Source: an uncultured Clostridia bacterium
Lineage (GTDB): Bacteria; Bacillota; Limnochordia; Darwinibacteriales; DTU012
Reading direction: 5' to 3'
DNA: 64,000 nt
Assembly (NCBI GenBank): GCA_900019385.1
Contig: FIZJ01000003.1
Span: forward strand, 42,744 to 106,743
A program made the position numbers and the translations under genes. The notes beneath the pieces were generated by a model. It was given only the letters and a program-made list of their open reading frames with translations, ran no database searches and was not told where the DNA came from. Positions 6,538-56,937 of the stretch are shown here, piece by piece; the first letter of the stretch is position 1, and the number at the start of each line of letters is the position of its first letter.

Positions 6538-6540
6538 AGC

Positions 6541-7320
6541 CTACTCTCCTTTCCGCAAGTGTTGAATCCCATTACTGTCGATATAATAATTCTCCCGGTA
6601 GATCAGCTCACTTACTGGGACAATCTCATATCCCTGGGCTATCAATTCCGGAAGGATGCGCCGTAAAGCCCGGGGCGTTTCCTTGGCAGCGTTGTGGAAC
6701 AGAACTATGGCGCCTGGCTGTGCCTGGCTGATCACCCTCTGGTAGATCTGGTCGGCGGTAGTATTTTTCCAATCGAGGGAATCGATGGACCATTGGATGG
6801 TGTAGTACCCCAGCGAATCCGCCGCTTTGATCACTGTGTTGTTGTACTCGCCGAAAGGCGGCCTGAACAAGAATGGATCTTGTCCAGTCAGCTCTCTAAT
6901 CATGGCATGATTCCGCTCCAACTCGTTGACGACTGCATCAAACGCAAGGCTGTTCATATGCGGATGAGAGTAACTGTGGTTGCCGATTTCATGGCCTTCT
7001 TCCGCTATGCGGATCACGTAATGAGGATACTTGTCGACCCAATAGCCCGCCAAGAAAAAGGTAGTTTTGACCTCGTGCTCTCTAAGAATGGCGAGAATCT
7101 CTTCTGTCAAATCCGTCCCCCAGGTGGCGTCGAAGGATACAGCAATCTTTTTGGCAGGGGTATCAACTGCGTAAATAGGTACCAACCGGTTGGATACTGC
7201 ATTGAATACCTGGATGATCATGGGTTGGATCCCTTCATGATAGACGCTGAAAGTCAAAAGCAGAAACACAGCCAAAAGCAGTACATGGGTGAAGTTGAGC
7301 TTGAGGACATAGACGCGCAT
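6541..7320 (-). CDS. polysaccharide deacetylase (delta-lactam-biosynthetic de-N-acetylase PdaA-like)
   Basis: NodB motifs (SFDATWG, EIGNHSYSHP); start MRVYVL with GGGGAGGAG RBS. Confidence 0.75.
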   Translation of the reverse strand: MRVYVLKLNFTHVLLLAVFLLLTFSVYHEGIQPMIIQVFNAVSNRLVPIYAVDTPAKKIAVSFDATWGTDLTEEILAILREHEVKTTFFLAGYWVDKYPHYVIRIAEEGHEIGNHSYSHPHMNSLAFDAVVNELERNHAMIRELTGQDPFLFRPPFGEYNNTVIKAADSLGYYTIQWSIDSLDWKNTTADQIYQRVISQAQPGAIVLFHNAAKETPRALRRILPELIAQGYEIVPVSELIYRENYYIDSNGIQHLRKGE

Positions 7321-20902: not shown

Positions 20903-21469
20903 TTACTTGCGGTTTTTAGCTTTGTCTGTTTTCACTATTCTTAGTCCTGCTTTTTCCAACGCATACAATACCCGCCCCACCACGTAGAGGATCTCGGTGG
21001 AGCGCTTGATGGCAAAGCTTTTTGCATAGGCTTTTCCACCGACAGTAATAGCGGCGACAAGCCCGATCAGCAGCGTGTTGGCGATGCTTTCGCGTATCTG
21101 GGGGTTGCTGAGGGCAAGTCGGAACACAATGGCGGCGGCAATGGCTCCACTGATCGTGCCAGCGATGTCGCCAACCACATCGTTGGAAAAAGATGCCACC
21201 CGGTCCGCGTGACGCACCAGCCAGATGCTGTGTTTGGCCCCCACAATCTTGTCAGAGGCCATGGCATGGAAAGGATCCTCTTCCCCCGATGCTGCGGCAG
21301 TGCCCACGATATCGAAGGCAATCCCCAGCAGCACAATAAAAAAAAGCAGTATGAAGCTGACGGCAAGAGGTGAAAACTCGAGTACAGCATTACTGCTGAA
21401 ATTGATCAACACAGAGATGACGAACGTGGTCACACCGGTTATCAGACTATGTTTGAGGTGTTTTTTCAT
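20903..21469 (-). CDS. oapA: OLE-associated membrane protein A-like small polytopic membrane protein
   Basis: 188 aa with ~4 TM helices, immediately downstream of the ORF-free structured region and upstream of dxs, the canonical OLE/oapA position; RBS GGGAAAGG. Confidence 0.55.
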   Translation of the reverse strand: MKKHLKHSLITGVTTFVISVLINFSSNAVLEFSPLAVSFILLFFIVLLGIAFDIVGTAAASGEEDPFHAMASDKIVGAKHSIWLVRHADRVASFSNDVVGDIAGTISGAIAAAIVFRLALSNPQIRESIANTLLIGLVAAITVGGKAYAKSFAIKRSTEILYVVGRVLYALEKAGLRIVKTDKAKNRK

Positions 21470-21494
21470 CTAAAACCTTTCCCATGATATGTAA

Positions 21495-22105
21495 TAATAA
21501 AAAGTGAATGACAGTGAATTGAGTAAAGATTGTGGCTTAGGTCCAGCAGGTTTTCCCAAAGATCCTCCGGCCCGTCGCCGCAGCCGGCGGTTTCCCCTTT
21601 CCGATCTTTTTGCCATGTCGCCATTGGCAAGGCTGGATTACCACTTAGTCCACACCGTAATCCTCAATCCACCTTCGTGAATACGAAACAGTCTAGGAGT
21701 TTTCCTCGACACCAATCGGCCATCTCTAGCCTCTTTTGCAGTACGGGTTTCAAGCCATGGACGCCTTGGCCTTTGGCATCCATATAGAAAGCCGCTATCC
21801 CCCCAATACCGCTCAAGGCAGGCTACTCTATACCCAGCACAAGGTTCGTATAGAGCTATGTTCGCGTACCGAGTATAGGTTCACTCCTAAGCCATAGCAG
21901 TACAGTCTCCCGTACCACCACACACTTAGGTCTCCGTGATAAAAGGGTCAATACCTACATGCCGTTGTAGATTGCCCTCTTATCTTAACCCCCAGCAGCA
22001 ACCCCCGACTGGGCGTCAAAGGCCACCACCAGAGACTTCATCGATGTGCCCTCAACGGATTTTTAGGCCCGTCTTCGAGATGAGATTGGTGACTAGAATA
22101 CTGCG
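21495..22105 (-). ncRNA. candidate OLE (ornate, large, extremophilic) RNA, ~610 nt
   Basis: 690-bp gap with no credible ORF in any frame between ispA and oapA/dxs; dedicated sigma-A promoter upstream; ~25-nt imperfect inverted repeat pairs the 5' end (GUAAAUGAAUAAAAGUGAAUGAC) with the 3' end (GUCAUUCACUUUUUAUUAUUACAU); many internal helices; ispA-[RNA]-oapA-dxs-tlyA-nadK-argR-recN synteny matches published OLE loci. Confidence 0.6.
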
Positions 22106-22150
22106 TCATTCACTTTTATTCATTTACATTATACCAGAACTTCGCCGGTT
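22106..22150 (-). promoter_or_regulatory. sigma-A promoter with extended -10 (TTGATG-17-TGgTATAAT) driving the OLE-like RNA
   Basis: Minus strand: TTGATGaaccggcgaagttcTGgTATAATgtaaatG. Confidence 0.55.
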
Positions 22151-22159
22151 CATCAATTG

Positions 22160-23035
22160 CTACGATTCCCGGTTCTGAACGTACTCAGCCAGTTCAGCCA
22201 GATAATTCTGGCTTGGGAGCCGCCTTGCGTAACGTATGCACTGTTCGACACATTTAACCGCTTTTTTCTGCGCATCCTCCAAACCGAGCAGGGTAACATA
22301 CGTGGTTTTGCCCTGTCGGGCATCAGCGCCTGTAACCTTGCCCAATTTGGCCATATCACCGGCAACATCCAGGATATCATCTGTGATTTGAAATGCCAAG
22401 CCGAGGTTTTCTCCATACAAGGTGATTGCTGACAGTTCTTCGTCATTGGCTCCACCGATCAGGGCGCCACCCCGCAGTGCCGCCAGAAACAGCTTGCCTG
22501 TCTTGTGCCGGTGGATGTATTCCAGAGTCAGTTCATCCACCTCATGCCCTTCGGACTGCAGATCCACGGCTTGTCCGCCCACCAACCCCTGGGAACCACA
22601 GGCTGCCGCCACTTCCTGGATCAAGCGCACAACCAGGCCGCTGTCAAGCGCCATTCGGCTTAAAGTCTCGAAAGCATAAGTCAGCAGGGCATCACCGGCC
22701 AAAATGGCAATCCCTTCTCCAAAAACTTTGTGGTTGGCGAGTTTGCCGCGGCGGTAATCGTCATTGTCCATCGCCGGCAAATCATCATGAACCAACGAAT
22801 AGGCATGAATCATCTCAACGGCACAGGCAAAATCCAAAGCCTGGCTCCCGTCGCCGCCTACAGCCCGGCATGCTTCCACAGCCAGGATCGCCCGCAGCCG
22901 CTTGCCTCCTCCCAGGCATGAATAGCGCATCGCCCGGTGGATCACATCCGGCATGACGGCGGCGTCGGGCAGCAGCTGATTAAGCCTCTCCTCCACCTGT
23001 TTGGCTTGCTCTTTGATATACGCACCGAGATCCAT
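22160..23035 (-). CDS. ispA: farnesyl/geranyl diphosphate synthase (polyprenyl synthetase)
   Basis: First and second aspartate-rich motifs (LVHDDLPAMDNDDYRRG; ITDDILD). Confidence 0.9.
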   Translation of the reverse strand: MDLGAYIKEQAKQVEERLNQLLPDAAVMPDVIHRAMRYSCLGGGKRLRAILAVEACRAVGGDGSQALDFACAVEMIHAYSLVHDDLPAMDNDDYRRGKLANHKVFGEGIAILAGDALLTYAFETLSRMALDSGLVVRLIQEVAAACGSQGLVGGQAVDLQSEGHEVDELTLEYIHRHKTGKLFLAALRGGALIGGANDEELSAITLYGENLGLAFQITDDILDVAGDMAKLGKVTGADARQGKTTYVTLLGLEDAQKKAVKCVEQCIRYARRLPSQNYLAELAEYVQNRES

Positions 23036-27150: not shown

Positions 27151-28527
27151 TCACCTAATATTTGACAATTTCCCCAGCGGTTCCGGCTTCCGTGCCAACT
27201 GCTCCAGAAAATGGGTGCTGTAGTCCCCGGCTCGGAACCGCAGGTCGTTTAAGACCCGTTTGTGGAAGCCGACGTTGTGCTTGATCCCCTCAATCTCAAT
27301 CTCCGCCAGCGCCCCCAGCATCCGATCGACAGCCTCGTCCCGGTCGCCTCCCCATGCGATTAGTTTGCCAAACATGGAATCATAATATGGCGATATTTCA
27401 TACCCCTGATAAACATGGCTGTCCCAGCGAATCCCGTGGCCGCCGGGGACATGAATTTTCGTAATGACCCCTGGAGACGGCATAAAGTCATTCTCGGGAT
27501 CTTCAGCATTCAACCGGCACTCAATGGCGTGCGCCGAGGGGACGATCCCCTTTTGATTATATTCCAACTCGGCGCCTGCGGCTATTTGAATCTGAGCTTT
27601 GACCAAATCAATGCCGTAAACCATCTCTGTAACAGGATGCTCCACCTGAATGCGGGTGTTCATCTCCAAGAAATAGAAGTTTCGGTTCTCATCAAGCAAA
27701 AACTCAATCGTACCGGCATTGATGTACTTCACCGCCTTGGCACCCTTCACGGCAGCCCTGCCCATCTCCTTCCTGAGGGCGGGTGTGACTGCCGGCGACG
27801 GACACTCCTCGATGATCTTCTGGTGGCGCCGCTGCAGCGAGCACTCCCGTTCGCCGAAATGCACCACATTTCCGTATTGATCTCCCAACAGCTGAATCTC
27901 AATATGCCGAGGGTTGGCGATGTATTTCTCCACATAGACCTGGTCACTGCCGAATGCTGCCCCAGCTTCCGCCCGGGCAAGGCGGTACCCTTTCAAGAGC
28001 TCGTCCTCGCTGTGGATGATGCGCATCCCTTTCCCGCCGCCGCCGGCGACAGCTTTGATCATCAGCGGGTAGCCGACTTGTTTCGCAAGGGCGGCCAGGT
28101 GATCCTCATTGGCCACAGGCCCGTCGCTGCCTGGAATCACTGGGACGCCGGCCGCTTTCATAATGGCCTTGGCCTGTGATTTGTCGCCCATCTTCTCAAT
28201 TTGGGCCGCAGTGGGCCCAATCCACACCAAGCCGTAATCTTCGCAGATCTCGGCAAAATCCGCCCGTTCAGCCAGATACCCGTACCCGGGATGAATGGCG
28301 TCGGCTCCGCTCAATACCGCTGCAGAAATGATGTTAGGGATATGCAGGTAGCTGGATTGGGATGCGGCCGGGCCGACGCAAACCGCCTCGTCGGCATATT
28401 TGACATGCAGCGAGCCGCGGTCTGCTTCCGAGTAGATCGCCACCGTCCGGATGCCCAGTTCACGGCAGGCACGGATCACCCTGAGGGCGATTTCACCGCG
28501 ATTGGCAATCAAAACTTTCTTAAACAT
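27151..28527 (-). CDS. accC: acetyl-CoA carboxylase biotin carboxylase subunit
   Basis: MFKKVLIANRGEIALRVIRAC..., ATP-grasp, 458 aa. Confidence 0.95.
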   Translation of the reverse strand: MFKKVLIANRGEIALRVIRACRELGIRTVAIYSEADRGSLHVKYADEAVCVGPAASQSSYLHIPNIISAAVLSGADAIHPGYGYLAERADFAEICEDYGLVWIGPTAAQIEKMGDKSQAKAIMKAAGVPVIPGSDGPVANEDHLAALAKQVGYPLMIKAVAGGGGKGMRIIHSEDELLKGYRLARAEAGAAFGSDQVYVEKYIANPRHIEIQLLGDQYGNVVHFGERECSLQRRHQKIIEECPSPAVTPALRKEMGRAAVKGAKAVKYINAGTIEFLLDENRNFYFLEMNTRIQVEHPVTEMVYGIDLVKAQIQIAAGAELEYNQKGIVPSAHAIECRLNAEDPENDFMPSPGVITKIHVPGGHGIRWDSHVYQGYEISPYYDSMFGKLIAWGGDRDEAVDRMLGALAEIEIEGIKHNVGFHKRVLNDLRFRAGDYSTHFLEQLARKPEPLGKLSNIR

Positions 28528-28538
28528 GCAGTCACCCT

Positions 28539-28994
28539 CTATTCCGCCGGCTCAATCAGGAACAAGGGCTGGCCGTACTCCACCGGCTGCCCGTTTTCCA
28601 CCAGAATCTCCACAACTTGGCCGCGGTATTCTGACTCGATCTCGTTCATCAGCTTCATTGCTTCGATGATGCAGAGAGTCTGGCCCTTTTCCACAAATGA
28701 GCCCACTTCCACATACGGGTCGGCCCCCGGCGAAGGAGCACGGTAAAAGACGCCAACCATGGGCGCCAGTACTTCACGAAGCTTTGCCGGCTGTTCCTGG
28801 CTGGGCTGTTGGGGTTCCGCCTCTTTTGTCCCGGCGGTGGCTGAGGGTTGGGGAACATGCTGCGCCGCTTGTTGAGGCGCTGATACCTTAAGCTTGCTCA
28901 AGTGCAGCTTGAGATTGTCCAGCTCCAGCACTAACTCGGTGATGTCGCTTTCGTTGAATATGGCGATTAACTCCTTGATCTCTGCGGTTTTCAT
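28539..28994 (-). CDS. accB: acetyl-CoA carboxylase biotin carboxyl carrier protein
   Basis: [10 protein letters not shown] biotinyl-Lys motif; start MKTAEIK with GCAGGAGG RBS. Confidence 0.9.
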
Positions 28995-29021
28995 CGCTAA
29001 CCTCCTGCACCATACGGGAAA

Positions 29022-29028
29022 TATAGTT
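29022..29028 (-). promoter_or_regulatory. perfect Spo0A-box heptamer (TGTCGAA on the minus strand) about 40 nt upstream of accB
   Basis: Exact 7-mer match; its function is inferred, not demonstrated. Confidence 0.25.
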
Positions 29029-29094
29029 ATTTTCGACATAAGGCGGTAATGTCCTGTTGCCTTGGTATACTTTTCCACAGGAAGGAGGTTTCAT

Positions 29095-46428: not shown

Positions 46429-47493
46429 ATGGATGTCAAAGAAATACTGGCCAACCTGTCGGAAGGCACCGGAGTTTCCGGCTACGAACACGGCATAGCA
46501 GATTATCTGGAGCAAAACTGCCCGTGGGCTGACGAGATCCGCCGGGACAAACTGGGCAATCTGATCATGGTGAAGCGGGCCAGGCCTGCCGCGGAGCAGC
46601 CCAGCAGGCCTAAGGTAATGCTGGCCGCCCATATGGACGAAATTGGGCTTATTGTCACCAAAATCGAAGATGAAGGTTTTCTGCGCTTCAGCGCTGTCGG
46701 CGGCATCGACCAGAGGGTGCTGCTGGCCCAGGAAGTCATAGTCCACGGCAAAGCTGAACTTCCAGGTGTGATCGGGGCCAAGCCGCCCCATGTACAGGCT
46801 CCTGCGGAACGAAACGAGGCTGTGCCCATGGAAGATCTGTACATTGACGTCGGATATGACTCCAAGGAACAGCTGGCTGATCTGGTCAACGTCGGGGACC
46901 TGGCGACGATCAACCGCAAAGTGGTGAGGCTGGCCGGATCGCTCATGGCCGGCAAAGCAATGGATGACCGCGCCGGCGTCGCGGTGATGCTGGAATGCCT
47001 CAAGGCACTGGCCAACATGAACCATATCGCCGATGTCTACGCTGTTGCCACCGTCCAGGAGGAAGTAGGCGTAAGGGGTGCCACCACCAGCACATTCGGC
47101 ATCGTTCCCGACATCGGCATCGCTCTCGATGTTGGCCACGGCGACATGCCCAGCGTACCGGAGCACCTGACGATCAGTCTGGGCAACGGGCCCGGAATCG
47201 CCCTTGGGCCGCATGTCCATCCCAACCTGCACAAGCGTTTGGTCCAGATCGCCAAAGATTGGAACATCAGCTACACTCTGGAACCGGCCACACGCCCCGG
47301 CGGGACTGACGCTTTCGCAATTCAGATCACTCAAGCGGGTATTCCTACTGCCTTGTTGTCCATACCTTTAAGATACATGCACACACCTGTTGAGACACTG
47401 AACTACGAAGATGTACGCAAAACTGCCCGTTTGCTGGCTCAATTCATTTCAGAACTCGATCAGGAATTCGTGGAGGGATTAAAGTGCTTTTAA
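46429..47493 (+). CDS. M42 family (TET/FrvX-like) aminopeptidase, paralog 1
   Basis: HMDEIG, DDRAG, QEEVG motifs. Confidence 0.9.
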   Translation: MDVKEILANLSEGTGVSGYEHGIADYLEQNCPWADEIRRDKLGNLIMVKRARPAAEQPSRPKVMLAAHMDEIGLIVTKIEDEGFLRFSAVGGIDQRVLLAQEVIVHGKAELPGVIGAKPPHVQAPAERNEAVPMEDLYIDVGYDSKEQLADLVNVGDLATINRKVVRLAGSLMAGKAMDDRAGVAVMLECLKALANMNHIADVYAVATVQEEVGVRGATTSTFGIVPDIGIALDVGHGDMPSVPEHLTISLGNGPGIALGPHVHPNLHKRLVQIAKDWNISYTLEPATRPGGTDAFAIQITQAGIPTALLSIPLRYMHTPVETLNYEDVRKTARLLAQFISELDQEFVEGLKCF

Positions 47494-48506
47494 AGCGACT
47501 GACTGAGGCCTGCGGCGGGCCGGGCCAGGAAGATGAGGTCCGGAATCTGATCCGGGGCGAAGTGAAAGATCTGGTTGATCAAGTCACCACCGATGCCTTG
47601 GGCAACCTAATCACCGTCAAGAACGGCACCAAGGCCGGCCCAAAGGTGATGATCGCCGCTCACATGGATGAAGTGGCCTTGATGATCATGAGTATTGAAA
47701 AGTCTGGCCTGCTCAAGTTCAATCCTATTGGAGGGATTGATCCCAGGGTACTGGTGGCCAAGACAGTAGTGGTCGGCAAAAACCGTGTCCCTGGTGTAAT
47801 CGGCTCCAAACCGATTCATCTGCAAAGGCCAGAAGAACGGAAGAAACCTCTCGCCATAGAAGAGCTGTATATCGATATCGGCGCTTCCAAAAAAGATGAA
47901 GCGGAACGGATGGTCAACATCGGTGATCTGGCCTATTTCACAACCGAGTTTGCCGCGATCGGCCCTGACAAGTTCAAAGGCAAAGCCTTGGATGACCGGG
48001 TGGGCTGCGCCATGCTGATCGACATACTCAAAGACACATATCAATTCCCGCTGTATGGAGCCTTTACAGTGCAGGAGGAAGTGGGCCTGCGCGGTGCCGG
48101 CACTGCCGCATACCAGGTCCAGCCTGATCTCGCCTTGGTGCTGGAAGGAACCACCGCATCAGATGTACCCGAAACTCCCAAACACCAGCATGCCACTAGT
48201 GTTGGCAAAGGCCCTTGCCTGACAGTCATGGACAGTTCCGTGATACCTGATCCCCGGTTGGTGGCAAAGCTGATGCAGCTGGCACAGCAGCACAACATCC
48301 CGGTTCAATACAGGCGCAGCACAAGCGGCGGCACCGATGCCGGCAAAATCCAGCAAAGCCGTGCCGGAGTGCCTGTCGCAGTCATCGCCCTGCCGTGCCG
48401 CTACATTCACTCGCCTGCGGCAATCGCCAGCCAAACCGACTATGATCATGCTGTTAAACTTGTGAAGGTGTTCCTGCGCAGTCTGGAAGAAGAAGGAGGA
48501 TTCTAA
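47484..48506 (+). CDS. M42 family aminopeptidase, paralog 2
   Basis: HMDEVA, DDRVG, QEEVG. Confidence 0.9.
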   Translation: MLLKRLTEACGGPGQEDEVRNLIRGEVKDLVDQVTTDALGNLITVKNGTKAGPKVMIAAHMDEVALMIMSIEKSGLLKFNPIGGIDPRVLVAKTVVVGKNRVPGVIGSKPIHLQRPEERKKPLAIEELYIDIGASKKDEAERMVNIGDLAYFTTEFAAIGPDKFKGKALDDRVGCAMLIDILKDTYQFPLYGAFTVQEEVGLRGAGTAAYQVQPDLALVLEGTTASDVPETPKHQHATSVGKGPCLTVMDSSVIPDPRLVAKLMQLAQQHNIPVQYRRSTSGGTDAGKIQQSRAGVPVAVIALPCRYIHSPAAIASQTDYDHAVKLVKVFLRSLEEEGGF

Positions 48507-48508
48507 CT

Positions 48509-49498
48509 ATGAAAAACCTGATTAAGGACCTCGTGGAAAGCTACGGCCCAACCGGTTTTGAGACTGAAGTAACCAACAAGATCCGCACATATATTGCTGA
48601 CAAAGTCGACGAATGTTATGTGGACGCCCTCGGCAATCTTATTGCCCGCAAAAAGGGCAGCGGCAAGAAAGTGATGTTTTCTGCCCATGCCGATGAAATC
48701 GGAGTCATTGTCACCTATATAGACGACGATGGATTCTTGCGGTTCAGCAATGTTGGCGGGCTGAACCTCCTCACTCTCCTCGGCGGCCGAGTCCGTTTCG
48801 CCAACGGTGTGATTGGTGTCATCGGCAAGGAAAAAGGCGAGCTGAAGGATCTCACCCTTGACAAGCTTTTTATCGACATCGGCGCCGCTACCAAAGACGA
48901 AGCCCAGAAAAAGGTCTCCATCGGTGATTTCGCAGTTTTCCACCGGGAATTCGCCGATTTGGGGCAGCGCCTGGTGGCCAAAAGCATGGATGACCGCATC
49001 GGCTGCGCAGTCTTGGTCGAGGCCATCCGCAGGCTGGATCATTCTGATCACGACCTCTACTTTGTTTTCAGCGCGCAGGAGGAGGTCGGGCTTCGGGGCG
49101 CCCGCACCGCGGCCTACAGCATCGACCCGGATCTGGGGATCGCAATCGATGTGACTAGGACTGGCGACACCCCGGAAGCTCCCCGCATGGATGTAAGCCT
49201 GGGCAAGGGTGCCGCCATCAAAGTGAAGGATTCCTCGGTGATCGCCCATCCCAAAGTGAAGAACCTCATGGTCCGGCTGGCCGAGGCCGATCAAATCAAG
49301 TACCAACTTGAGGTCTTGGAAGCTGGGGGAACCGACGCCGGCGCCATCCACCTCACAAAATCAGGTGTCCCGTCCGGCACCATCTCAATCCCCTGCCGCT
49401 ATGTGCACAGCCCGTCGGAAATGGTGGACCTGGACGATGTGGAAAACTGTGTGAAGTTGATTCTGGCCATCTGCCGCGATTCCCTCGATGAATTCTAG
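48509..49498 (+). CDS. M42 family aminopeptidase, paralog 3
   Basis: HADEIG, DDRIG, QEEVG. Confidence 0.9.
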   Translation: MKNLIKDLVESYGPTGFETEVTNKIRTYIADKVDECYVDALGNLIARKKGSGKKVMFSAHADEIGVIVTYIDDDGFLRFSNVGGLNLLTLLGGRVRFANGVIGVIGKEKGELKDLTLDKLFIDIGAATKDEAQKKVSIGDFAVFHREFADLGQRLVAKSMDDRIGCAVLVEAIRRLDHSDHDLYFVFSAQEEVGLRGARTAAYSIDPDLGIAIDVTRTGDTPEAPRMDVSLGKGAAIKVKDSSVIAHPKVKNLMVRLAEADQIKYQLEVLEAGGTDAGAIHLTKSGVPSGTISIPCRYVHSPSEMVDLDDVENCVKLILAICRDSLDEF

Positions 49499-49515
49499 TC
49501 CGCCAAGAAAAAAGA

Positions 49516-49548
49516 AACAGGGCTTGTTCAAAGCCCTGTTTTGCTTTT
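49516..49548. terminator. bidirectional terminator between the convergent M42 and decarboxylase operons
   Basis: AACAGGGCUUguucaAAGCCCUGUUUUGCUUUU. Confidence 0.8.
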
Positions 49549-49562
49549 ATGCGCTTGCAAGG

Positions 49563-50891
49563 CTATGCCTGTTTCCGGCTCAAAAAGAACTGGCGGGCAT
49601 ACTCGGGAAACAATATGTAACTTAAGACATCCTCATCGCTGGCAGCCAGTCCCTTGATCTCTTTCCTGGCCTCCTCCATTCCCGGTGCCAAGAGATCCGC
49701 CGGGCGGACTGTGATCGGCTTCTCGTCACCGATGATCATCTTCTGGACTTCCGGTTCGATGGGAACCGGCGGACGGCCGTACAGTCCTTTCACATAATCC
49801 TTTATCTCCTTGGTCTTGATCTTGTACCTTTCACCGGTAATCACGTTCAACACCGCCTGGGTGCCTATGATCTGGCTCATGGGCGTCACCAGAGGCGGAT
49901 AACCCAGTTCCTTGCGGACCCGGGGAACTTCCTCCAGAATCTCGTCGTATTTGTGGCTGAGCTTCTGCTGTTCCAGCTGGGCCCGGAGATTGGACAGCAT
50001 CCCTCCTGGGATCTGGCTGACCATCACTTCGGTGTTCACCGCTGCTTGCGGCTTCTTGTAATCGGCAAGGGCTTTCTTGATTTCCTGATTGATCCTGGCC
50101 AAAAGGCTCAAATCCAGGCCGGTGTCGTAATCTGTTTCCTGGAGCACCTTCACCATCGTCTCCGTTGGAGGTTGGGACGTTCCCAAAGCCAACGCGGATA
50201 TCGCTGTGTCCACCACAGCCACGCCGGCTTGAATCCCTTCCCAATAGGCCATGGACGCAAAACCACAGGTGTAATGGGAATGGAGCTGAATTGGCACATT
50301 GACGGCTTGTTTCAACTGCCTGACCAGTTCGCTGGCCCTGGCAGGCGTCAACAACCCAGCCATATCCTTGATGCAGATGGAATCGGCACCCATTTCCACC
50401 AGTTCTTTGGCAATCTTCACATAACCTGGAATGTCATGAGCAGGGCTGACAGTATAGACGACAGACGCCTGAGCGTGGGCACCTGTTTTTTTAACCGCCC
50501 GCAGGGCTCTTTCGATATTCCGGGTATCGTTCAGAGCGTCAAAGATCCGGATAATATCAATTCCGTTCTCCACCGCCTTGGCCACAAAAGTGTCCACCAC
50601 ATCATCCGGATACTGACGGTAGGCCACGAGATTTTGCCCTCTGAGCAGCATCTGCAGCTTTGTCCTGGGCATTCTTTTCCGCAGTGTCCTAAGTCTTTCC
50701 CACGGATCCTCGTTCAAATAGCGCAGGCAGGTGTCGAAGGTAGCCCCGCCCCACACTTCCACCGAATGATAACCCACCTCATCAATCATCTCGGCCACCG
50801 CGAGCATGTGCTCAATCTTCAACCGCGTGGCCAGAAGCGACTGATGGGCGTCGCGAAACAAGGTTTCTGTAATTCCGATTTTGCGCTGCAT
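49563..50891 (-). CDS. oxaloacetate decarboxylase alpha-type carboxyltransferase (5S/PycB-like TIM barrel, no biotin domain)
   Basis: ...FRDAHQSL..., HSHYTCG metal motif; 442 aa ending before any biotinyl domain. Confidence 0.85.
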   Translation of the reverse strand: MQRKIGITETLFRDAHQSLLATRLKIEHMLAVAEMIDEVGYHSVEVWGGATFDTCLRYLNEDPWERLRTLRKRMPRTKLQMLLRGQNLVAYRQYPDDVVDTFVAKAVENGIDIIRIFDALNDTRNIERALRAVKKTGAHAQASVVYTVSPAHDIPGYVKIAKELVEMGADSICIKDMAGLLTPARASELVRQLKQAVNVPIQLHSHYTCGFASMAYWEGIQAGVAVVDTAISALALGTSQPPTETMVKVLQETDYDTGLDLSLLARINQEIKKALADYKKPQAAVNTEVMVSQIPGGMLSNLRAQLEQQKLSHKYDEILEEVPRVRKELGYPPLVTPMSQIIGTQAVLNVITGERYKIKTKEIKDYVKGLYGRPPVPIEPEVQKMIIGDEKPITVRPADLLAPGMEEARKEIKGLAASDEDVLSYILFPEYARQFFLSRKQA

Positions 50892-50903
50892 TATCTCCCC
50901 CTC

Positions 50904-52022
50904 CTATCCAAGCACCGACAGCAGCACTCCCGCCGCGATTGCCGAGCCGATCACTCCCGCGACATTGGGCCCCATGGCGTGCATCAGCAGAAAATTGGTG
51001 CGGTCTTCTTCCTGCCCCACCAACTGTACCACCCGGGCGCTCATGGGGACTGCTGAAACACCGGCCGCTCCAATGAGAGGATTGATCTTGCCTTTGGATA
51101 TCACCGACAAAATCTTGCCAAACAGCACTCCCCCCGCAGTGGCCAACGCGAACGAAGCTGCTCCCAAAAGCAGAATAGAGATGGTCGACAAGCTGATGAA
51201 CGCAGCACCGTTGGCAGTGGCTCCCACTGTGAGCCCGACAAAAATGGTGACGATATTCATCAGTTCATTCTGGGCTGTATAAGACAGCCTCTGCGTCACG
51301 CCGCACTCCCTTAAGAGGTTTCCGAGCATCAATGTGCCGATCAAAGGCAGCGAATTCGGGACCAGCAAACCGGAAAAGAGTGTGACAATGATTGGAAACA
51401 GGATTTTTTCGACACGGCTGACTTTGCGCAGCTGTGTCATCTTAATCCTCTGCTCGGCCTTGGTTGTCAGAAGCTTCATAATCGGCGGCTGGATGATCGG
51501 CACCAGGGCCATGTACGAGTAGGCCGCTATCGCGATGGGCGCTAGAAGGTGCGGCGCCAGCATGGCCGTAAGAAAGATAGCCGTCGGGCCGTCAGCGCCG
51601 GCTATAATGGCGATTGCCGCTGCCTCCTGCATAGTGAAGCTCAAGCCGGGTAAGCTAACCGTGGATGCGATCATGAACGTGACAAAAATGCCCAACTGGG
51701 CGGCGGCACCCAAGAGCAGGCTCCGCGGATTGGCGAGCAGAGGCCCAAAATCGGTCATAGCGCCCACCCCCAAAAAAATCAAGGGTGGGTAGATCCCCAG
51801 TTCAATGCCTTTGTATAGAACGTGAAGCAGACCGCCGGGCTCCATGATGCCTGTCTTGGGGAAATTGGCCAGAAAAACACCAAAGGCGATCGGCACCAAG
51901 AGCAGCGGCTCGTATTTCTTGCGAATCCCCAAGTACATCAGGACAAGGGCAATGACCAGCATTACCGCTTCCTGCCAGGTGACCGCATATAGACCAGTGC
52001 TTTCCCACAAAGTTCCCAACAT
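50904..52022 (-). CDS. oadB: Na+-translocating decarboxylase beta subunit (OadB/GcdB/MmdB family)
   Basis: 372 aa, ~9 TM, conserved LLFLGxGA-like segments. Confidence 0.9.
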
Positions 52023-52037
52023 TCCAGATGTCCCTCT

Positions 52038-52367
52038 CTATTGGATAATAGCCAGTACATGTTCAGCTTCCACGGATACACCAGTCTGCACAATCTGAAC
52101 GACAGTGCCGGCAACCGGCGCCGTGATTTCATTCTCCAGCTTCAGTGCTTCCAAAGTGAGCAGCACATCCCCTGCCTGTACTTTGTCGCCGACCTTGGCC
52201 TTAACCGAAAGAATTGTCCCTGCCAGAGGCGCCTTCACCTCTGTGCCGCTCGGCTTCTGTTCCGAAGAAGAATGTGCCTGCGGTTTCGCTTGCTGTTCCG
52301 ACGGTGTTAAAAGCTCGACTTCCACTTCGTAGACTCTACCATCGATCTTGACACGGTATTTGGTCAT
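52038..52367 (-). CDS. biotin carboxyl carrier subunit (biotinyl domain) of the decarboxylase
   Basis: ...VLLTLEALKLENEITAP... (biotinyl-Lys context; E-A-L-K-L in place of A-M-K-M). Confidence 0.85.
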   Translation of the reverse strand: MTKYRVKIDGRVYEVEVELLTPSEQQAKPQAHSSSEQKPSGTEVKAPLAGTILSVKAKVGDKVQAGDVLLTLEALKLENEITAPVAGTVVQIVQTGVSVEAEHVLAIIQ

Positions 52368-52395
52368 ATCCTGCCCTCCATTTACTTAGCTCGAG

Positions 52396-52665
52396 TTACC
52401 CAACTCGTGTGATTCTCAGTTCTCCTTCCACACCCAATTCTTTCATCACTGCGGCAATAACCGCCAAATCCCGCGCTTGTCCGTCGAAACCACCGTCGAC
52501 AGCGGCTGGAGCAGTGCCGGGCTTTGCCTTGGGTTTTGCTGTGGAAGCTGTGAATACAGTGATCAGCTTACTGATTAACCAAACCAGGACAGCCAGGGCC
52601 ATCAGCGTCAAAAACACGACGATTGCCCCCAAGATGCTGATTTCTAGAGCACTGATGACGGCCAC
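52396..52665 (-). CDS. oadG: OadG-like gamma subunit (single TM)
   Basis: 89 aa, N-terminal TM, Pro/Ala-rich linker; typical position; start codon uncertain (GTG with adjacent SD). Confidence 0.55.
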   Translation of the reverse strand: MAVISALEISILGAIVVFLTLMALAVLVWLISKLITVFTASTAKPKAKPGTAPAAVDGGFDGQARDLAVIAAVMKELGVEGELRITRVG

Positions 52666-52694
52666 CTCCCGTTTATTGATTCATGAAAAAGCGG

Positions 52695-52719
52695 GGCTTA
52701 TTTCTTGCCGGAATAAGCC
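52695..52719 (-). promoter_or_regulatory. stem-loop overlapping the S-component stop codon, followed by CUUUUUC (possible attenuator between transporter and decarboxylase genes)
   Basis: GGCUUAUUccggcaagaAAUAAGCCccgCUUUUUC. Confidence 0.35.
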
Positions 52720-53216
52720 TCGCCATATTTGCGCAAAAGTTTCATCAGCCTGTCGCCAAAAGCAAAATACATGGCGGCATTGCCGACAGCATGTGTCAGA
52801 TCATGCGGCAGTCCTGCCAGATAGTAGGCAATAATCCTTCTGGTGAACAGCAGCCCGTTTAGAGAAACAATCATGCCGTACATTATTCCCAACAACCCGG
52901 CAGCCGCTGTGGACACAAGCAGGCTCCGCCTCCATTTGGTTTTGCCGTACAAGTAACTCGCCACTGCCACCGCCGTCCAGCTCAACATCTGAAAAATGGT
53001 CCAGATTCCATGGCCGAGCTGGAGATTGGAGATCCAGGTACTTATGACAGCAACCATGACTGCCGGGCGCAGTCCCATGGACATCGCTGTCACCATGATG
53101 ATCACAGTTGTCGGCTGCATCCCCGGTACTGGTTCCATGACGATCCTGCCGGCGATGCTGGCTGCCGCAAGCAGCGCAACCACCGCCTGTTCCCTAATGT
53201 GACGCCTTACTGCCAT
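52698..53216 (-). CDS. ECF-transporter S-component-like small membrane protein (~6 TM)
   Basis: Hydrophobicity pattern/size; start ATG overlaps the upstream stop (ATGGCAGTAA); family assignment tentative. Confidence 0.45.
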   Translation of the reverse strand: MAVRRHIREQAVVALLAAASIAGRIVMEPVPGMQPTTVIIMVTAMSMGLRPAVMVAVISTWISNLQLGHGIWTIFQMLSWTAVAVASYLYGKTKWRRSLLVSTAAAGLLGIMYGMIVSLNGLLFTRRIIAYYLAGLPHDLTHAVGNAAMYFAFGDRLMKLLRKYGEAYSGKK

Positions 53217-53626
53217 GGACGTAGATCCCAGTGATAGACATCCCCGTCTTTGATCTGGTACTGGGAAGCTCCAACCAAGGCCATCTCCCCGTTGATATCG
53301 TACATCCACGCCGTCTGGTCTGCGTTGGATGCCTGTCTACCCTGGATTGAGGTGATGAAGCCGCCCGTGTGCTCGATCATGAACTTGCGCTCCATCAGTT
53401 CCAGCAGCGTGTAATTCTTGTCTTTGGGTATCTTGAAATAATAAGTGATAGGATTCTGGCCGTTGTTTTCGCTCAAAATCACTTTGACATCGATTGTGTC
53501 ATTGTCGTCAGCCCAGCCAGGAATGCCTGCCGGTTCAGGCTGCGCCAGCCAATAGCCGGCGGCAGCGCCCAAGAAAGCAGCCACCACAACCAACGCCGCC
53601 ACAACTATATATGTCTGCTTCTTCAT
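53207..53626 (-). CDS. DUF4430-like (corrinoid-binding BtuH/transcobalamin-β-like) membrane-anchored protein
   Basis: N-terminal anchor; ...TAWMYDINGEMALVGASQYQIKDGDVYHWDL resembles the DUF4430 signature; tentative. Confidence 0.45.
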   Translation of the reverse strand: MKKQTYIVVAALVVVAAFLGAAAGYWLAQPEPAGIPGWADDNDTIDVKVILSENNGQNPITYYFKIPKDKNYTLLELMERKFMIEHTGGFITSIQGRQASNADQTAWMYDINGEMALVGASQYQIKDGDVYHWDLRPWQ

Positions 53627-53651
53627 CCTGACCCACTCCCAACCAGAATAC

Positions 53652-54422
53652 TTAGATGGTCATGGCGCCGAACCCGCCGTCAACCCTGACCAAAGCGCCA
53701 GTCACATAGCTGGACGCTTTCTCCGACGCCAGCCAGAGGCAGACACCCTGCAGCTCCTTTGGTTCGCCAAAGCGCTTCACCGGGGTATGGCGCATGATAT
53801 CCGCGACCCGCTGCTCGTCTAGAATCCTGCGGTTTTGCTCAGCTGGGAAGAAGCCAGGTATGATGGCATTCACCCGGATGTTGTAGGGTGCCAGTTCCCT
53901 GGCCAGGTACTGGGTAATACTGTTGATCCCCGCCTTTGATGCTGAATAGGTGAACACTCTCGACAGCGGCGGCCCCGATGACACTGACGAAATATTGATG
54001 ATGCTGCCGCCGGTGCCTTGTTTGATCATCTTCTTGGCGAAAATCTGGATTGTGAACACACAGCCTTTCAAGTTGACGGCCATGATATTGTCCCATTCTG
54101 ACGGCTGCAGCTCCAAGAATGGCGTGCTGGAATTCACCCCCGGCGCGTAGAGGAGGATATCAACGGAACCGGCCCACGCTTCGATTTCGTCAGCCGCTCT
54201 CTGCACTGATTCCAAGTCGGTCACATCGGCGACAAACGATTTGATCTCGCCGCCCAAAGCCCGCACTTGCTCCTCCACTTCCGGCGCATATTCCGGTTTC
54301 ATCACTACCGAAGCGATCTTTGCGCCGTGGAGTACAAAGCCTTCAATAATCGCCCGGGCAAGGGTGCTGTTGCCGCCCATGATTACCGCTGTTTTCCCTT
54401 CTAAGCTGAACAAATCTGACAT
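53652..54422 (-). CDS. short-chain dehydrogenase/reductase (SDR)
   Basis: ...GKTAVIMGGNSTLARAII..., YSASK catalytic tetrad; start MSDLFS with AAGGAG RBS. Confidence 0.85.
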   Translation of the reverse strand: MSDLFSLEGKTAVIMGGNSTLARAIIEGFVLHGAKIASVVMKPEYAPEVEEQVRALGGEIKSFVADVTDLESVQRAADEIEAWAGSVDILLYAPGVNSSTPFLELQPSEWDNIMAVNLKGCVFTIQIFAKKMIKQGTGGSIINISSVSSGPPLSRVFTYSASKAGINSITQYLARELAPYNIRVNAIIPGFFPAEQNRRILDEQRVADIMRHTPVKRFGEPKELQGVCLWLASEKASSYVTGALVRVDGGFGAMTI

Positions 54423-54471
54423 ACTATGGCTCCTTTCCAATAATAGATTTACATTTTTCGGCTGTGTTGGA

Positions 54472-55743
54472 TCAGCGCGTCAAATTGCCGTTAGCGTCAA
54501 ACTCCCAGTCATACGGAGCTGAGAGAATGTTCAGGTTCGGATTGCTTTCCACTTCTGGAATCATCGGCTCCGACACCTCGATCTCCGCCAGCTGCAGCGT
54601 GTTTTTGATCCTGACAAGGCGGACCTTGGTGAAATCGAGGATGTTGCAGGTTTTGATCGCTGCCTGAATAGCCTCCCGGTCATTCTCCAAAGTGGTGGGT
54701 ATCTTTGTCGGCGCTACCACTGTGGATGTGAGGCCGTTGGCATAGATTTTCTCGTAGTCGATTTTATCCACGCAGTACCTTGTGGTGAAGTCCGCGGTTC
54801 CGATGCCGTTGGCGTTGCCTTCAGTCTCGTCCGTCAAATCGAGGACCACGATCTTGGTCACATCTGGGCCTCCGTAAGCGTAAGGTGTGGGATAGCGCCC
54901 CACCACATTGGGATCAAACCCGTCTCCGCTGATGTTTTTGCCGATTTCATCGATCACCAGGACATCGATCTGGTCGAACCACAGTTTGGGCATATTGGCT
55001 TTGGCAATCTTGAGCAGTTCTTTCTCTTCGCCTTCGATCTCGCTGGCTGGAATCACCTTAAGCTTCATCACCTGATCAAAGGCATTCTCCACTGTGGCCA
55101 CACCGAACAGCACCGGCAGCTTGTCCATAATCACCTTGGCCATGGTTGGGACGAATTCGGCCATATGTTTAAACCCCAGTTGGTGGCAGGCTTCGGCGCC
55201 CTTTTGCTTGCCGAGGCCGATGGCCAGCATCTTCATCAGACCGCTTTCAATCGGGCCGCGGAACGCCGTATGGGGTTTGACCCGGTTGATGACAACGATA
55301 CCGTCAGCCTGGCATGCGAAACGATCCACGTATACAGGCAGCCCATTTTCGAGAGAAGCGATCTGATTGACCTCCATGGATGAACGGATCGGCGCCCCCA
55401 CCGAGTCTTCCGTAATCCCCAGATGCCGCAGCACTTCTTTTTGGCCTTCAGCCGAAGCACCGCCGTGGCTGCCCATGCTGGGGACGATGAACGGCTCGGC
55501 CTGCAGTGCCTTCAGCTCTTCCACCACTACCCTTACTATATCAGCGATCCGATTCACACCGCGGCTGCCTACCGCGACAGCTATCGTCATTCCCGGCTTG
55601 ATCATCGCTTGGATGTGTTCTTGACGCAGTTGAGCCCTTAGTTCGCCTTCCACGTCGGCCAGCCGGGGAGCGTCAAACTTCTGGCTTACTTTCACCATTC
55701 TTGGAATGGGTATGCCTTTCACTAGTTCCGACACTACTCCCAC
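54472..55743 (-). CDS. LarA-family (lactate racemase-like, DUF2088) α-hydroxyacid racemase/epimerase homolog
   Basis: 423 aa; overall similarity to the LarA/DUF2088 fold (N-terminal ...KVSQKFDAPR...VGSRG); GTG start with GGAAGGTGA RBS. Confidence 0.7.
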   Translation of the reverse strand: MGVVSELVKGIPIPRMVKVSQKFDAPRLADVEGELRAQLRQEHIQAMIKPGMTIAVAVGSRGVNRIADIVRVVVEELKALQAEPFIVPSMGSHGGASAEGQKEVLRHLGITEDSVGAPIRSSMEVNQIASLENGLPVYVDRFACQADGIVVINRVKPHTAFRGPIESGLMKMLAIGLGKQKGAEACHQLGFKHMAEFVPTMAKVIMDKLPVLFGVATVENAFDQVMKLKVIPASEIEGEEKELLKIAKANMPKLWFDQIDVLVIDEIGKNISGDGFDPNVVGRYPTPYAYGGPDVTKIVVLDLTDETEGNANGIGTADFTTRYCVDKIDYEKIYANGLTSTVVAPTKIPTTLENDREAIQAAIKTCNILDFTKVRLVRIKNTLQLAEIEVSEPMIPEVESNPNLNILSAPYDWEFDANGNLTR

Positions 55744-55777
55744 AGTATCACCTTCCTTGCTATATCGTCCTGTGTCT

Positions 55778-55806
55778 ATTATACACTTTATCGGGGCATA
55801 TTTACA
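55778..55806 (-). promoter_or_regulatory. sigma-A promoter (TGTAAA-17-TATAAT) for the LarA-like operon
   Basis: Perfect -10 hexamer, about 45 nt upstream of the start. Confidence 0.5.
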
Positions 55807-55864
55807 GTTCTAGGATAAAAATCAAAATCCTGCCGGAATCCTAAGCAACCAAGTTCTTTATGCT

Positions 55865-55893
55865 TGACAAGTGAAACCATCATTTGTATAATT
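55865..55893 (+). promoter_or_regulatory. perfect-consensus sigma-A promoter (TTGACA-17-TATAAT) for aroF
   Basis: Both hexamers and the spacer are exact consensus. Confidence 0.75.
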
Positions 55894-55920
55894 TTGCCTA
55901 AATACCAAGGGGGCAGTGCC

Positions 55921-56937
55921 ATGGTTATCGTGATGAAACAAAACACACCTGTTGACGAACTGGAGCAGCTCAAAGCCCGCTTAAGGCAGATGGGTTTCGA
56001 CATCCACTTGTCTCAGGGTGAGAACCACACTGTTATAGGCCTTATCGGCGATTCAACCAGGATCGATGAAAGCCAGCTTCAAGCCAATCCTTTCGTGGAC
56101 CGCATTCTCCGCGTCCAGCACCCATTCAAGCGGGCCAGCCGCATGTTTCATCCTGAGGACACTGTTATCGATCTTGACGGGCTAAAACTGGGTGGAGGCA
56201 ATACTTTGATCATCGCCGGGCCGTGTTCGGTTGAAAGCGAAGAGCAGCTGATGACCATCGCTCAGCAGGTTAAGGCTGCAGGCGCCCACCTGCTCCGGGG
56301 TGGTGCCTTTAAGCCAAGAACTTCCCCCTACAGTTTCCAAGGCCTAGGCCTGGAGGGCCTGGAACTCCTGCGCCGGGCGAAAGAACTCACGGGCATGCCG
56401 ATTGTCACCGAGTGCATTTCCGTGGACACAGTTGATCTTGTCGCCGAGTATGCCGACGTGGTTCAGATCGGCGCCCGCAACATGCAGAACTTCGCCTTGC
56501 TGAAAAAGGTGGGCCAGATCGATCGCGCGGTACTGCTCAAACGAGGGATGTCGGCCACTATCGAGGAATTCCTCATGGCGGCTGAATACATCCTGGCTGA
56601 AGGGAACGAGCGGGTCATTTTGTGCGAGCGAGGGATCCGCACCTACGAGACTTATACACGCAACACGTTGGATATCAGTGCCATTGTCGCCATCAAAGAA
56701 CTTTCCCACCTGCCTATCATTTGTGATCCCAGCCACGCGGCAGGAAAATGGGAAATGGTCACTCCCCTTGCCAAAGCGGCGATTGCCGCCGGCGCCGACG
56801 GTCTGATGGTCGAAGTCCACCATCGACCGGAAATCGCTCTGTCCGACGGCAGCCAATCACTCAAACCCGAGAGGTTCCACCGCTTGGTCGCGGCTGTCAA
56901 TCAGATCATCGGCCTTAACAAAAGCATGGTCCATTGA
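55921..56937 (+). CDS. aroF: type Iβ 3-deoxy-7-phosphoheptulonate (DAHP) synthase with N-terminal ferredoxin-like regulatory domain
   Basis: ...LIIAGPCSVES..., ...GARNMQNF..., ...CDPSHA... (Iβ family); AGGGGG RBS. Confidence 0.9.
   Translation: MVIVMKQNTPVDELEQLKARLRQMGFDIHLSQGENHTVIGLIGDSTRIDESQLQANPFVDRILRVQHPFKRASRMFHPEDTVIDLDGLKLGGGNTLIIAGPCSVESEEQLMTIAQQVKAAGAHLLRGGAFKPRTSPYSFQGLGLEGLELLRRAKELTGMPIVTECISVDTVDLVAEYADVVQIGARNMQNFALLKKVGQIDRAVLLKRGMSATIEEFLMAAEYILAEGNERVILCERGIRTYETYTRNTLDISAIVAIKELSHLPIICDPSHAAGKWEMVTPLAKAAIAAGADGLMVEVHHRPEIALSDGSQSLKPERFHRLVAAVNQIIGLNKSMVH

Follow-up and report, generated by a model that had tools for sequence, protein, structure and literature searches.

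An eight-gene string in an uncultured Limnochordia bacterium: a predicted nickel-pincer epimerase pair, a putative vitamin B12 importer and a split oxaloacetate decarboxylase as probably independent modules

A run of eight tightly packed genes, beginning with a homologue of the lactate racemase LarA and ending with the carboxyltransferase of a putative Na+-pumping decarboxylase, raises the question of whether its members serve a single pathway or stand side by side as separate functions. The run lies in a stretch of 64,000 nucleotides of contig FIZJ01000003.1 (the window) from an uncultured 'Limnochordia bacterium' of anaerobic digesters, and an earlier note on this DNA had read it as one chemiosmotic route, leading for example from malate through oxaloacetate to pyruvate. 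That reading could not be upheld, as the orthologous pair of LarA homologue and dehydrogenase occurs in bacilli without decarboxylase genes, and the combination of all modules was found in one lineage only. We consider the eight genes to be, quite probably, a lineage-specific string of three functionally independent and individually known modules: a predicted sugar-acid epimerase with its dehydrogenase, a corrinoid uptake pair and a four-subunit oxaloacetate decarboxylase. The main value of the analysis lies in ruling out the claimed new chemiosmotic pathway; the cluster itself is ordinary, with the group of LarA homologues and the importer pair as modestly interesting leads.

Gene content of the cluster

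All eight genes are co-directional and occupy positions 49563-55743 of the minus strand, as had been stated before. Scans with Pfam and NCBIfam bore out the eight family assignments proposed earlier, with the qualification that the S-component of the energy-coupling factor (ECF) transporter scored below the gathering score of ECF_trnsprt and was placed by its match to PDB entry 6FNP. The genes and the signals around them are listed below in the direction of transcription (SDR, short-chain dehydrogenase/reductase; aa, amino acids).

55778-55783, minus strand: candidate -10 box TATAAT 5' of the LarA homologue, putatively assigned by reading the sequence
54472-55743, minus strand: LarA-superfamily protein of group 22 with 423 aa, by prediction an epimerase of 2-hydroxy acids (hexonate type) that depends on the nickel-pincer cofactor
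53652-54422, minus strand: SDR oxidoreductase of sugar-acid type, 256 aa from the ATG
53207-53626, minus strand: DUF4430 (transcobalamin C-terminal-like) protein, membrane-anchored, by Pfam DUF4430
52698-53216, minus strand: ECF S-component, homologue of CbrT (vitamin B12), 172 aa, by its match to 6FNP chain A
52686-52719, minus strand: degenerate intrinsic-terminator-like hairpin and T5 run over the stop codon of the S-component gene, at the boundary with the decarboxylase genes
52396-52665, minus strand: OadG-type gamma subunit, 89 aa, by Pfam OAD_gamma
52038-52367, minus strand: free-standing, OadD-like biotin carrier, 109 aa, by Pfam Biotin_lipoyl
50904-52022, minus strand: OadB-type Na+-translocating carboxybiotin decarboxylase beta subunit, 372 aa, by OAD_beta and TIGR01109
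49563-50891, minus strand: 5S-type (oxaloacetate/pyruvate) carboxyltransferase without a biotin domain, similar to the OadA carboxyltransferase domain and PycB, 442 aa, by HMGL-like and PYC_OADA
49514-49542, both strands: bidirectional intrinsic terminator (stem and T-runs), common to the cluster and the convergent M42 peptidase genes

The LarA homologue and its dehydrogenase partner

The product of the first gene was assigned to the NCBIfam family NF052515, 'nickel pincer cofactor-dependent isomerase, group 22', with 580.8 bits at a cut-off of 400, and to Pfam Lar_N with 32.6 bits at a threshold of 23.3. The group numbers of the LarA superfamily go back to Desguin et al. 2020 (PMC7583248), who give group 22 an 'unknown function'. 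A sequence-profile search of the PDB was nearly blind, returning lactate racemase 2YJG alone at E=0.25, so that structure prediction followed by a Foldseek search was needed. The AlphaFold2 model obtained (pLDDT 75.5, pTM 0.74; the C-terminal domain partly of low confidence) matched 19 PDB structures at E<=1e-3, all of them from the LarA family, with E values from 3e-10 to 1.6e-7 and TM-scores of 0.41-0.50. Residues R61, H93, H158, K171 and H187 of the window protein, corresponding to R75, H108, H174, K184 and H200 of LarA, are invariant across an alignment of 18 homologous sequences. In the alignment with 2YJG, H93 and H158 coincide with its GxH and PH motifs; R61, K171 and H187 were mapped not by structural superposition but via the published signature of Geobacillus M493_04995, a group-22 member of the PMC7583248 dataset that has R, H, H, K and H at the five LarA positions and is 68% identical to the window protein. 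Loss of the cofactor-binding residues had been named in the earlier note as grounds for abandoning its reading; they are conserved, and the reading is not refuted on this count. It is credible, as judged from the sequence and the model, that the protein is a nickel-pincer enzyme with its catalytic and cofactor residues intact. Far above the family cut-off, with the same R, H, H, K, H signature and the same adjacent SDR gene, it resembles the other members of group 22.

Two more specific identities were considered for the LarA homologue and rejected. Malate-racemase models of NCBIfam gave about 22 bits against cut-offs of 462-500. The signature of GntE, which consists of E, V, A and H at LarA positions F175, F176, W358 and T359 (PMC11770544), is absent, the corresponding residues of the window protein being T159, A160, G and L.

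The second gene encodes an SDR protein (Pfam adh_short_C2, 178 bits) with the Y-x-x-x-K motif present as YSASK. The best specific model, PRK08277 for the UxuB/YjmF-like, SDR-type D-mannonate oxidoreductase, was matched with 237 bits, below its cut-off of 281, and the nearest solved structures are KduD and the hexonate and gluconate 5-dehydrogenases. In its sequence the protein thus resembles sugar-acid dehydrogenases and not malate dehydrogenases.

The genomic context of this pair was analyzed in 80 loci with relatives of the LarA homologue, taken from contigs of one genome per species and searched with the eight window proteins; loci L009-L084 (76 loci) are from Bacillaceae and Paenibacillaceae. 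The relatives of the window are represented by L005-L008, L087 and L088. The SDR gene lies directly downstream of the LarA-homologue gene in 73 of the 80 loci and in about 70 of the 76 bacillus ones, where the SDR shares 59-68% and the LarA homologue 65-69% identity with the window protein. Genes for DUF4430, the S-component or decarboxylase subunits were not found within 10 kb in any of the 76 bacillus group-22 loci. What surrounds the pair there, at approximate coordinates 8000-17500 of L009-L084, is an operon of the order uxaC - larAH (the LarA homologue) - SDR - larE - FGGY gluconokinase-like - larB - larC1 - larC2. Its members were counted in 30 loci (uxaC, glucuronate isomerase), 73 (SDR), 64 (LarE), 61 (FGGY kinase closest to gluconokinase), 58 (LarB) and 45/38 (LarC1/LarC2); gnd, for 6-phosphogluconate dehydrogenase, was located upstream in 42 of the loci, 46 have a divergent ROK regulator, and GFO/IDH/MocA oxidoreductases, xylose-isomerase-like barrels and transporters of the major facilitator superfamily (MFS) or of the tripartite ATP-independent periplasmic (TRAP) type are also frequent nearby. 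The same associations are given for group 22 in Table S1 of Desguin et al. 2020 (PMC7583248): SDR 45%, dihydroxy-acid/phosphogluconate dehydratase 30%, LarE 30%, TRAP transporter 30%, sugar kinases 25% and glucuronate isomerase 20%, with decarboxylase COGs absent from the list.

Taken together, the context and the similarities of the SDR point to sugar-acid (hexuronate/hexonate) metabolism as the place of the pair. Most likely, the SDR would form a hexonate by reducing fructuronate or tagaturonate, keto-acids that derive from hexuronates, and the nickel-pincer enzyme would then invert C2, giving the gluconate form from, for example, D-mannonate or D-mannonate 6-phosphate, so that carbon derived from pectin or hexuronates could be fed into 6-phosphogluconate metabolism. 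The simplest route for the bacillus operon would run from glucuronate via fructuronate to D-mannonate, through C2 epimerisation to gluconate/6-phosphogluconate and on to ribulose-5-phosphate; alternatively, the kinase acts first and the substrate of the epimerase is 6-phosphomannonate. A 6-phosphomannonate 2-epimerase activity was demonstrated in Lactobacillus suebicus without an identified gene (PMC6978723). The bacillus operon thus predicts for group 22 a hexonate or 6-phosphohexonate C2-epimerase that links hexuronates to 6-phosphogluconate, and this predicted activity might include the one reported geneless in L. suebicus. A likeness to GntE may be seen in the combination of an SDR and a nickel-pincer epimerase that would join the hexuronate isomerase route to gluconate/6-phosphogluconate, as well as in the sugar kinase adjacent in both the bacillus and the Thermotoga contexts; GntE proteins, the D-gluconate/D-mannonate 2-epimerases of Thermotoga maritima and Corynebacterium glutamicum, belong to LarA groups 19/20, from which group 22 is phylogenetically different.

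Unlike its bacillus counterparts, the window pair is detached from larE/larB/larC, uxaC, the FGGY kinase gene and gnd; the genes next to it downstream are those of a B12 importer. No tblastn match to uxaC, gluconokinase-like, gnd, ROK or GFO genes was obtained in the window or in the flanks of its relatives. In line with the earlier note, which had seen no larB, larC or larE in the window, tblastn with LarB, LarC1, LarC2 and LarE of Bacillaceae found no match in the 64 kb or in the relatives' flanks. The pair might act on another, non-hexuronate sugar-acid or hydroxy-acid substrate, and would even then have no tie to the decarboxylase or the B12 importer. In favour of this are the absence of the bacillus partner genes, the position equivalent to LarA K298, occupied by V in the window protein and by T in bacilli, and the formally unknown function of group 22. 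Set against this are the high identity to the bacillus pair, the identity of the pocket residues at LarA positions 355-362 (Y-A-N-G-L-T-S-T in both) and the pectin-degrading capacity of the lineage, for which an encoded pectinesterase and oligogalacturonide lyase were reported (PMC12663870). We regard a different substrate as unlikely, though worth keeping in view, and prefer a hexuronate-derived one.

A pectinesterase gene was also observed immediately downstream of the carboxyltransferase gene in the related locus L087 (11970-13850), which fits a pectin/hexuronate lifestyle of the lineage.

The putative corrinoid importer

The third gene encodes a DUF4430 protein (Pfam, 64.4 bits), the translation of which begins with an N-terminal hydrophobic anchor; in the PDB it matches weakly 3U7Z and the C-terminus of transcobalamin-1, and transcobalamins carry DUF4430 as their C-terminal domain (PMC4350170). 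The S-component encoded by the next gene, when compared with all PDB chains, had a sole match, 6FNP chain A (E=9.3e-21, 77.7 bits, residues 6-155), which is the CbrT component of the vitamin B12 transporter ECF-CbrT (PMC5997447); no other S-component structure was matched at E<=10. The Pfam family ECF_trnsprt was hit with 26.5 bits, under the gathering score of 30.7. The ECF energising module is not encoded in the cluster. Group-II S-components normally rely on an ECF energising module encoded elsewhere.

Independent indications of corrinoid transport come from cobalamin riboswitches at two other loci. In Halobacillus mangrovi (L085, 5211-6519), a stand-alone pair of DUF4430 and S-component genes, the products of which are 32% and 40% identical to those of the window, stands directly behind a cobalamin riboswitch (118 bits). 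In a related metagenome-assembled genome (L008), the slot between the SDR gene and oadG contains a cobalamin riboswitch (82.7 bits, 2739-2931) with its terminator, followed by genes for Peripla_BP_2, FecCD and the ATPase of an ATP-binding cassette (ABC) transporter, i.e., a BtuFCD-type importer, in place of DUF4430 and the S-component. At this site, one B12 importer has been exchanged for another that is not homologous to it. The word-indexed search for S-component homologues returned 13 proteins, so that the association with riboswitches comes from two independent loci, L085 and L008; at a third one, L086, no cobalamin riboswitch was detected at the gathering score.

The suggestion of a corrinoid/ECF uptake pair, put forward tentatively in the earlier note, is strengthened by the homology to CbrT and by these riboswitches. 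The pair would take up corrinoids (vitamin B12) by means of an energising module encoded elsewhere in the genome, with DUF4430 as a membrane-anchored binding protein on the outside. DUF4430 is the likely extracytoplasmic corrinoid-binding partner of the S-component. Found elsewhere under a B12 riboswitch, the pair suggests that a transcobalamin-like binding protein, anchored in the membrane and facing outwards, is used by some ECF B12 transporters. DUF4430 may thus be an extracytoplasmic B12-binding accessory in a class of transporters that is usually described without binding proteins. The S-component is a clear homologue of that in ECF-CbrT of Lactobacillus delbrueckii and is likewise encoded apart from the ECF module; it differs in being translationally coupled to a membrane-anchored DUF4430 protein, in having no cobalamin riboswitch in the window and in lying inside a string of catabolic genes.

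The decarboxylase genes

The last four genes encode the components of a biotin-dependent decarboxylase. OadG was recognized by Pfam OAD_gamma (35.9 bits, gathering score 27) and OadB by Pfam OAD_beta (519.5 bits) and TIGR01109 (509 bits), the latter protein matching the beta subunit of the Salmonella oxaloacetate decarboxylase (OAD; 6IVA/6IWW) at E=3.9e-119. The carboxyltransferase scored 738 bits with NCBIfam PRK09282 (cut-off 402) and 699.5 bits with PRK12331, just under the cut-off of 718; its matches to PDB entries 5KS8, 2NX9 and 1RQB (E from 1e-154 to 6e-145; 2NX9 at E=1e-145) represent PycB, OadA of V. cholerae and the transcarboxylase 5S subunit. The separate biotin carrier was matched by Pfam Biotin_lipoyl with 62.1 bits, its best NCBIfam matches being the C-terminal biotin domains of OadA/PycB, and the motif around its putative biotinyl-lysine is ALKL against the canonical AMKM, the same variant being found in L008 (7085-7462).

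These proteins would make up an Na+-pumping oxaloacetate decarboxylase with four subunits. It would be of the split type of Enterococcus faecalis, whose decarboxylase is already known to have its biotin carrier as a separate protein (PMC6193673, PMC3198936). Common to the window system and to OadA, OadB, OadD and OadH of E. faecalis are the separate carboxyltransferase and carrier, the OadB pump and a small fourth subunit. In the window, unlike in E. faecalis, the fourth subunit can be recognised as OadG, the genes form a contiguous block in the order G-carrier-B-carboxyltransferase and are not embedded in a citrate lyase cluster, and the carrier has the ALKL motif. The beta, gamma and carboxyltransferase components are homologous to those of the classical OadGAB of Klebsiella, Salmonella and Vibrio (6IVA/6IWW, 2NX9), in which one polypeptide makes up the whole alpha subunit, biotin domain included, whereas that of the window is split.

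A literature search combining Limnochordia with oxaloacetate decarboxylase found nothing, and B12, a decarboxylase and nickel are unmentioned in the published description of 'Ca. Darwinibacteriales', the order to which 'Ca. Wallacebacter cryptica' (PMC12663870), a relative with 83% identity in the LarA homologue, belongs.

In the related locus L088 (8689-10707), the genes for the OadG-like protein, the biotin carrier and the carboxyltransferase are present and oadB is absent from the locus. This suggests either that the pump subunit was lost or relocated, or that the soluble parts have another carboxyl-transfer role.

Transcription signals and the hairpin before oadG

The gaps between the genes, in order from the LarA homologue, are 49, 25, -10, 32, 28, 15 and 12 nt; the range of -10 to 49 nt is close to, but not identical with, the gaps of 3-31 nt or overlaps described before. 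Public gene calls for the identical locus start the SDR at the ATG at 54422, and use of an alternative TTG start (54440) would reduce the first gap to 31 nt; they start the S-component at 53216, internal to an open reading frame (ORF) of 203 aa, which gives the 10-nt overlap with DUF4430.

Of the single sigma-A promoter proposed upstream of the LarA homologue, the perfect -10 box TATAAT stood, with an 18-nt spacer to the -35 sequence CTGTAA (55802-55807), which agrees with the consensus at 3/6 positions only. The TATAAT at 55778-55783 was not reported by a consensus promoter scan, and promoter-like matches in the region are at the chance level (5 found, 5.1 expected), so that such scans can neither support nor exclude internal promoters. 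It is plausible that one sigma-A promoter at this place is the single promoter of the cluster, from which all eight genes would probably be transcribed one way. In an Rfam scan of 49400-56000 no family was matched, even at E<=1, and neither a cobalamin nor any other riboswitch was detected. At the other end, the bidirectional terminator described before is present at 49514-49542 as the top match of the terminator scan; it has a stem of 11-12 bp and T-runs on both strands and separates the cluster from three M42 peptidase genes that converge on it.

The hairpin reported over the stop codon of the S-component gene was found at 52695-52719, followed by T5 at 52686-52690. In the window it is weak, having 8 bp and a mismatch and -10.9 kcal/mol (z about 0, indistinguishable from shuffled sequences), and it is conserved in the relatives: at the homologous position L087 has a canonical intrinsic terminator (12 bp, T6, -17.8 kcal/mol, z -3.46), the top terminator match of the scan, 24 nt before oadG, and strong hairpins occur in L005 (z -4.1) and L088 (z -4.67). 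The space between the window hairpin and oadG is too short for a promoter, as the S-component gene and oadG are 32 nt apart, and the decarboxylase genes therefore depend on read-through from upstream. The hairpin would set them apart as a separate expression unit. Its most likely effect is an attenuation of transcription where the genes for the LarA homologue, SDR, DUF4430 and S-component give way to those of the decarboxylase, probably lowering read-through into the latter; an earlier suggestion that it tunes the ratio of transporter to decarboxylase agrees with this.

Gene order, module independence and competing explanations

The full eight-gene order was found only in the close relatives L005, L006, L007, L087 and L088, with 74-87% identity in the LarA homologue, all from anaerobic digesters (Limnochordia/'Ca. 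Darwinibacteriales'). Unrelated flanking genes are equally syntenic in the relatives, namely those for DAHP synthase, VTC/DUF4956, a leucine-rich repeat (LRR) protein, the three M42 peptidases and patatin, and the conserved order therefore reflects the general collinearity of a gene string and not a specific coupling. Within this collinearity the modules vary independently: in L008 the riboswitch-controlled ABC importer and a tRNA gene (6506-6576) lie between the SDR gene and oadG, L088 is without oadB, and in L087 the terminator separates the S-component gene from oadG.

Several points nevertheless weigh against independence of the modules or against their proposed functions. Group 22 does not carry the signature residues of GntE and its hexonate substrate is a prediction, and with the bacillus partner genes missing from the window and the relatives' flanks, the hexuronate role is assigned here purely through orthology. 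The B12 pair of the window has no riboswitch in Rfam scans, whether the gathering score or E<=1 is taken as the limit. The window genes are tightly packed, with gaps of 12-49 nt, and we infer that all eight are likely to be co-transcribed. Finally, the order of LarA homologue, SDR, B12 uptake and oxaloacetate decarboxylase is kept though the S-components are only 43-62% identical, and is kept even with a non-homologous B12 importer in the slot, both of which could hint at selection.

A rival explanation is the idea of one catabolic, energy-conserving operon, in which a hydroxy acid such as D/L-malate would be converted by the LarA homologue and the SDR to a 2-oxo or beta-keto acid and decarboxylated by the membrane enzyme with export of Na+. 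The tight co-directional packing without promoter room before oadG, the retention of the order in several relatives and the occurrence of malate racemases among LarA homologues (PMC7583248) are in its favour. Yet the pair of LarA homologue and SDR is orthologous to that of hexuronate/gluconate-type operons devoid of decarboxylases, the SDR is of the sugar-acid and not the malate dehydrogenase type, and malate-racemase models score about 22 bits against 462-500; the two halves are kept apart by a B12 importer and a terminator-like hairpin, the linkage is broken in L008 and L088, and with the whole neighbourhood syntenic the conserved order is not specific evidence. The finding that homologue neighbourhoods combine the modules only within one clade, a comparison that the earlier note had itself proposed, largely refutes the single pathway, which we consider very unlikely.

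A weaker form of linkage would be a real dependency behind the persistent order, with the sugar-acid or hydroxy-acid product passing to the biotin pump as a beta-keto acid, or with the importer salvaging the metal cofactor of the LarA homologue where larBCE are missing. Such a lineage-specific link is granted a slim chance, because the genes are physically co-transcribable and the order persists despite the importer swap. Slimmer still appears the chance that B12 uptake is tied to the decarboxylase module, for example in a B12-dependent fermentation of the succinate/propionate type using the biotin machinery: some B12 importer does lie immediately upstream of oadG in every relative examined, but the carboxyltransferase belongs to the 5S type for oxaloacetate/pyruvate, the cluster and its flanks showed neither 12S nor methylmalonyl-CoA genes, and a terminator-like hairpin or a tRNA gene stands between importer and oadG. 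Least credible is an importer that serves the LarA homologue with a nickel-containing or niacin-derived cofactor or precursor, as its position after the SDR, taken in bacilli by the cofactor-supply genes larE, larB and larC, the lack of a riboswitch here and the absence of larBCE from the window might suggest, in view of the specific homology to the B12 S-component CbrT, the transcobalamin domain in DUF4430 and the cobalamin riboswitches that govern the Halobacillus pair and the replacement importer of L008.

Neighbouring features of the window

The LarA homologue occurs as an identical protein on 346 contigs. Just upstream of its gene, proB-proA is found co-directionally in L006, L007 and L088, with dapF and an aminotransferase gene after proA in L007. 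In the window, a perfect sigma-70 consensus promoter (TTGACA-17-TATAAT, 12/12) at 55864-55892 of the plus strand points away from the LarA homologue and is positioned to drive the divergent DAHP synthase gene (55921-56937).

On the other side, the plus strand carries at 46429-49498 three tandem paralogous genes for M42-family aminopeptidases, convergent with the cluster and kept in the relatives; the paralogues are 37-42% identical to one another (matched across L006).

Farther away, at 27151-29078 of the minus strand, a 458-aa ORF is presumably a biotin carboxylase gene (accC), judging by its N-terminal sequence, and the 179-aa ORF beside it is guessed to be accB; both adjoin ORFs that we take to be sporulation and efp genes. 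From their sequences, the putative accC/accB suggest a second, separate biotin system.

A full-length ornate large extremophilic (OLE) RNA was detected at 21492-22125 of the minus strand with 495.5 bits (gathering score 50). It is flanked by ORFs of 188 aa (20903-21469) and 291 aa (22160-23035), and a nearby 622-aa ORF (19011-20879) is, by its N-terminal sequence, presumably dxs.

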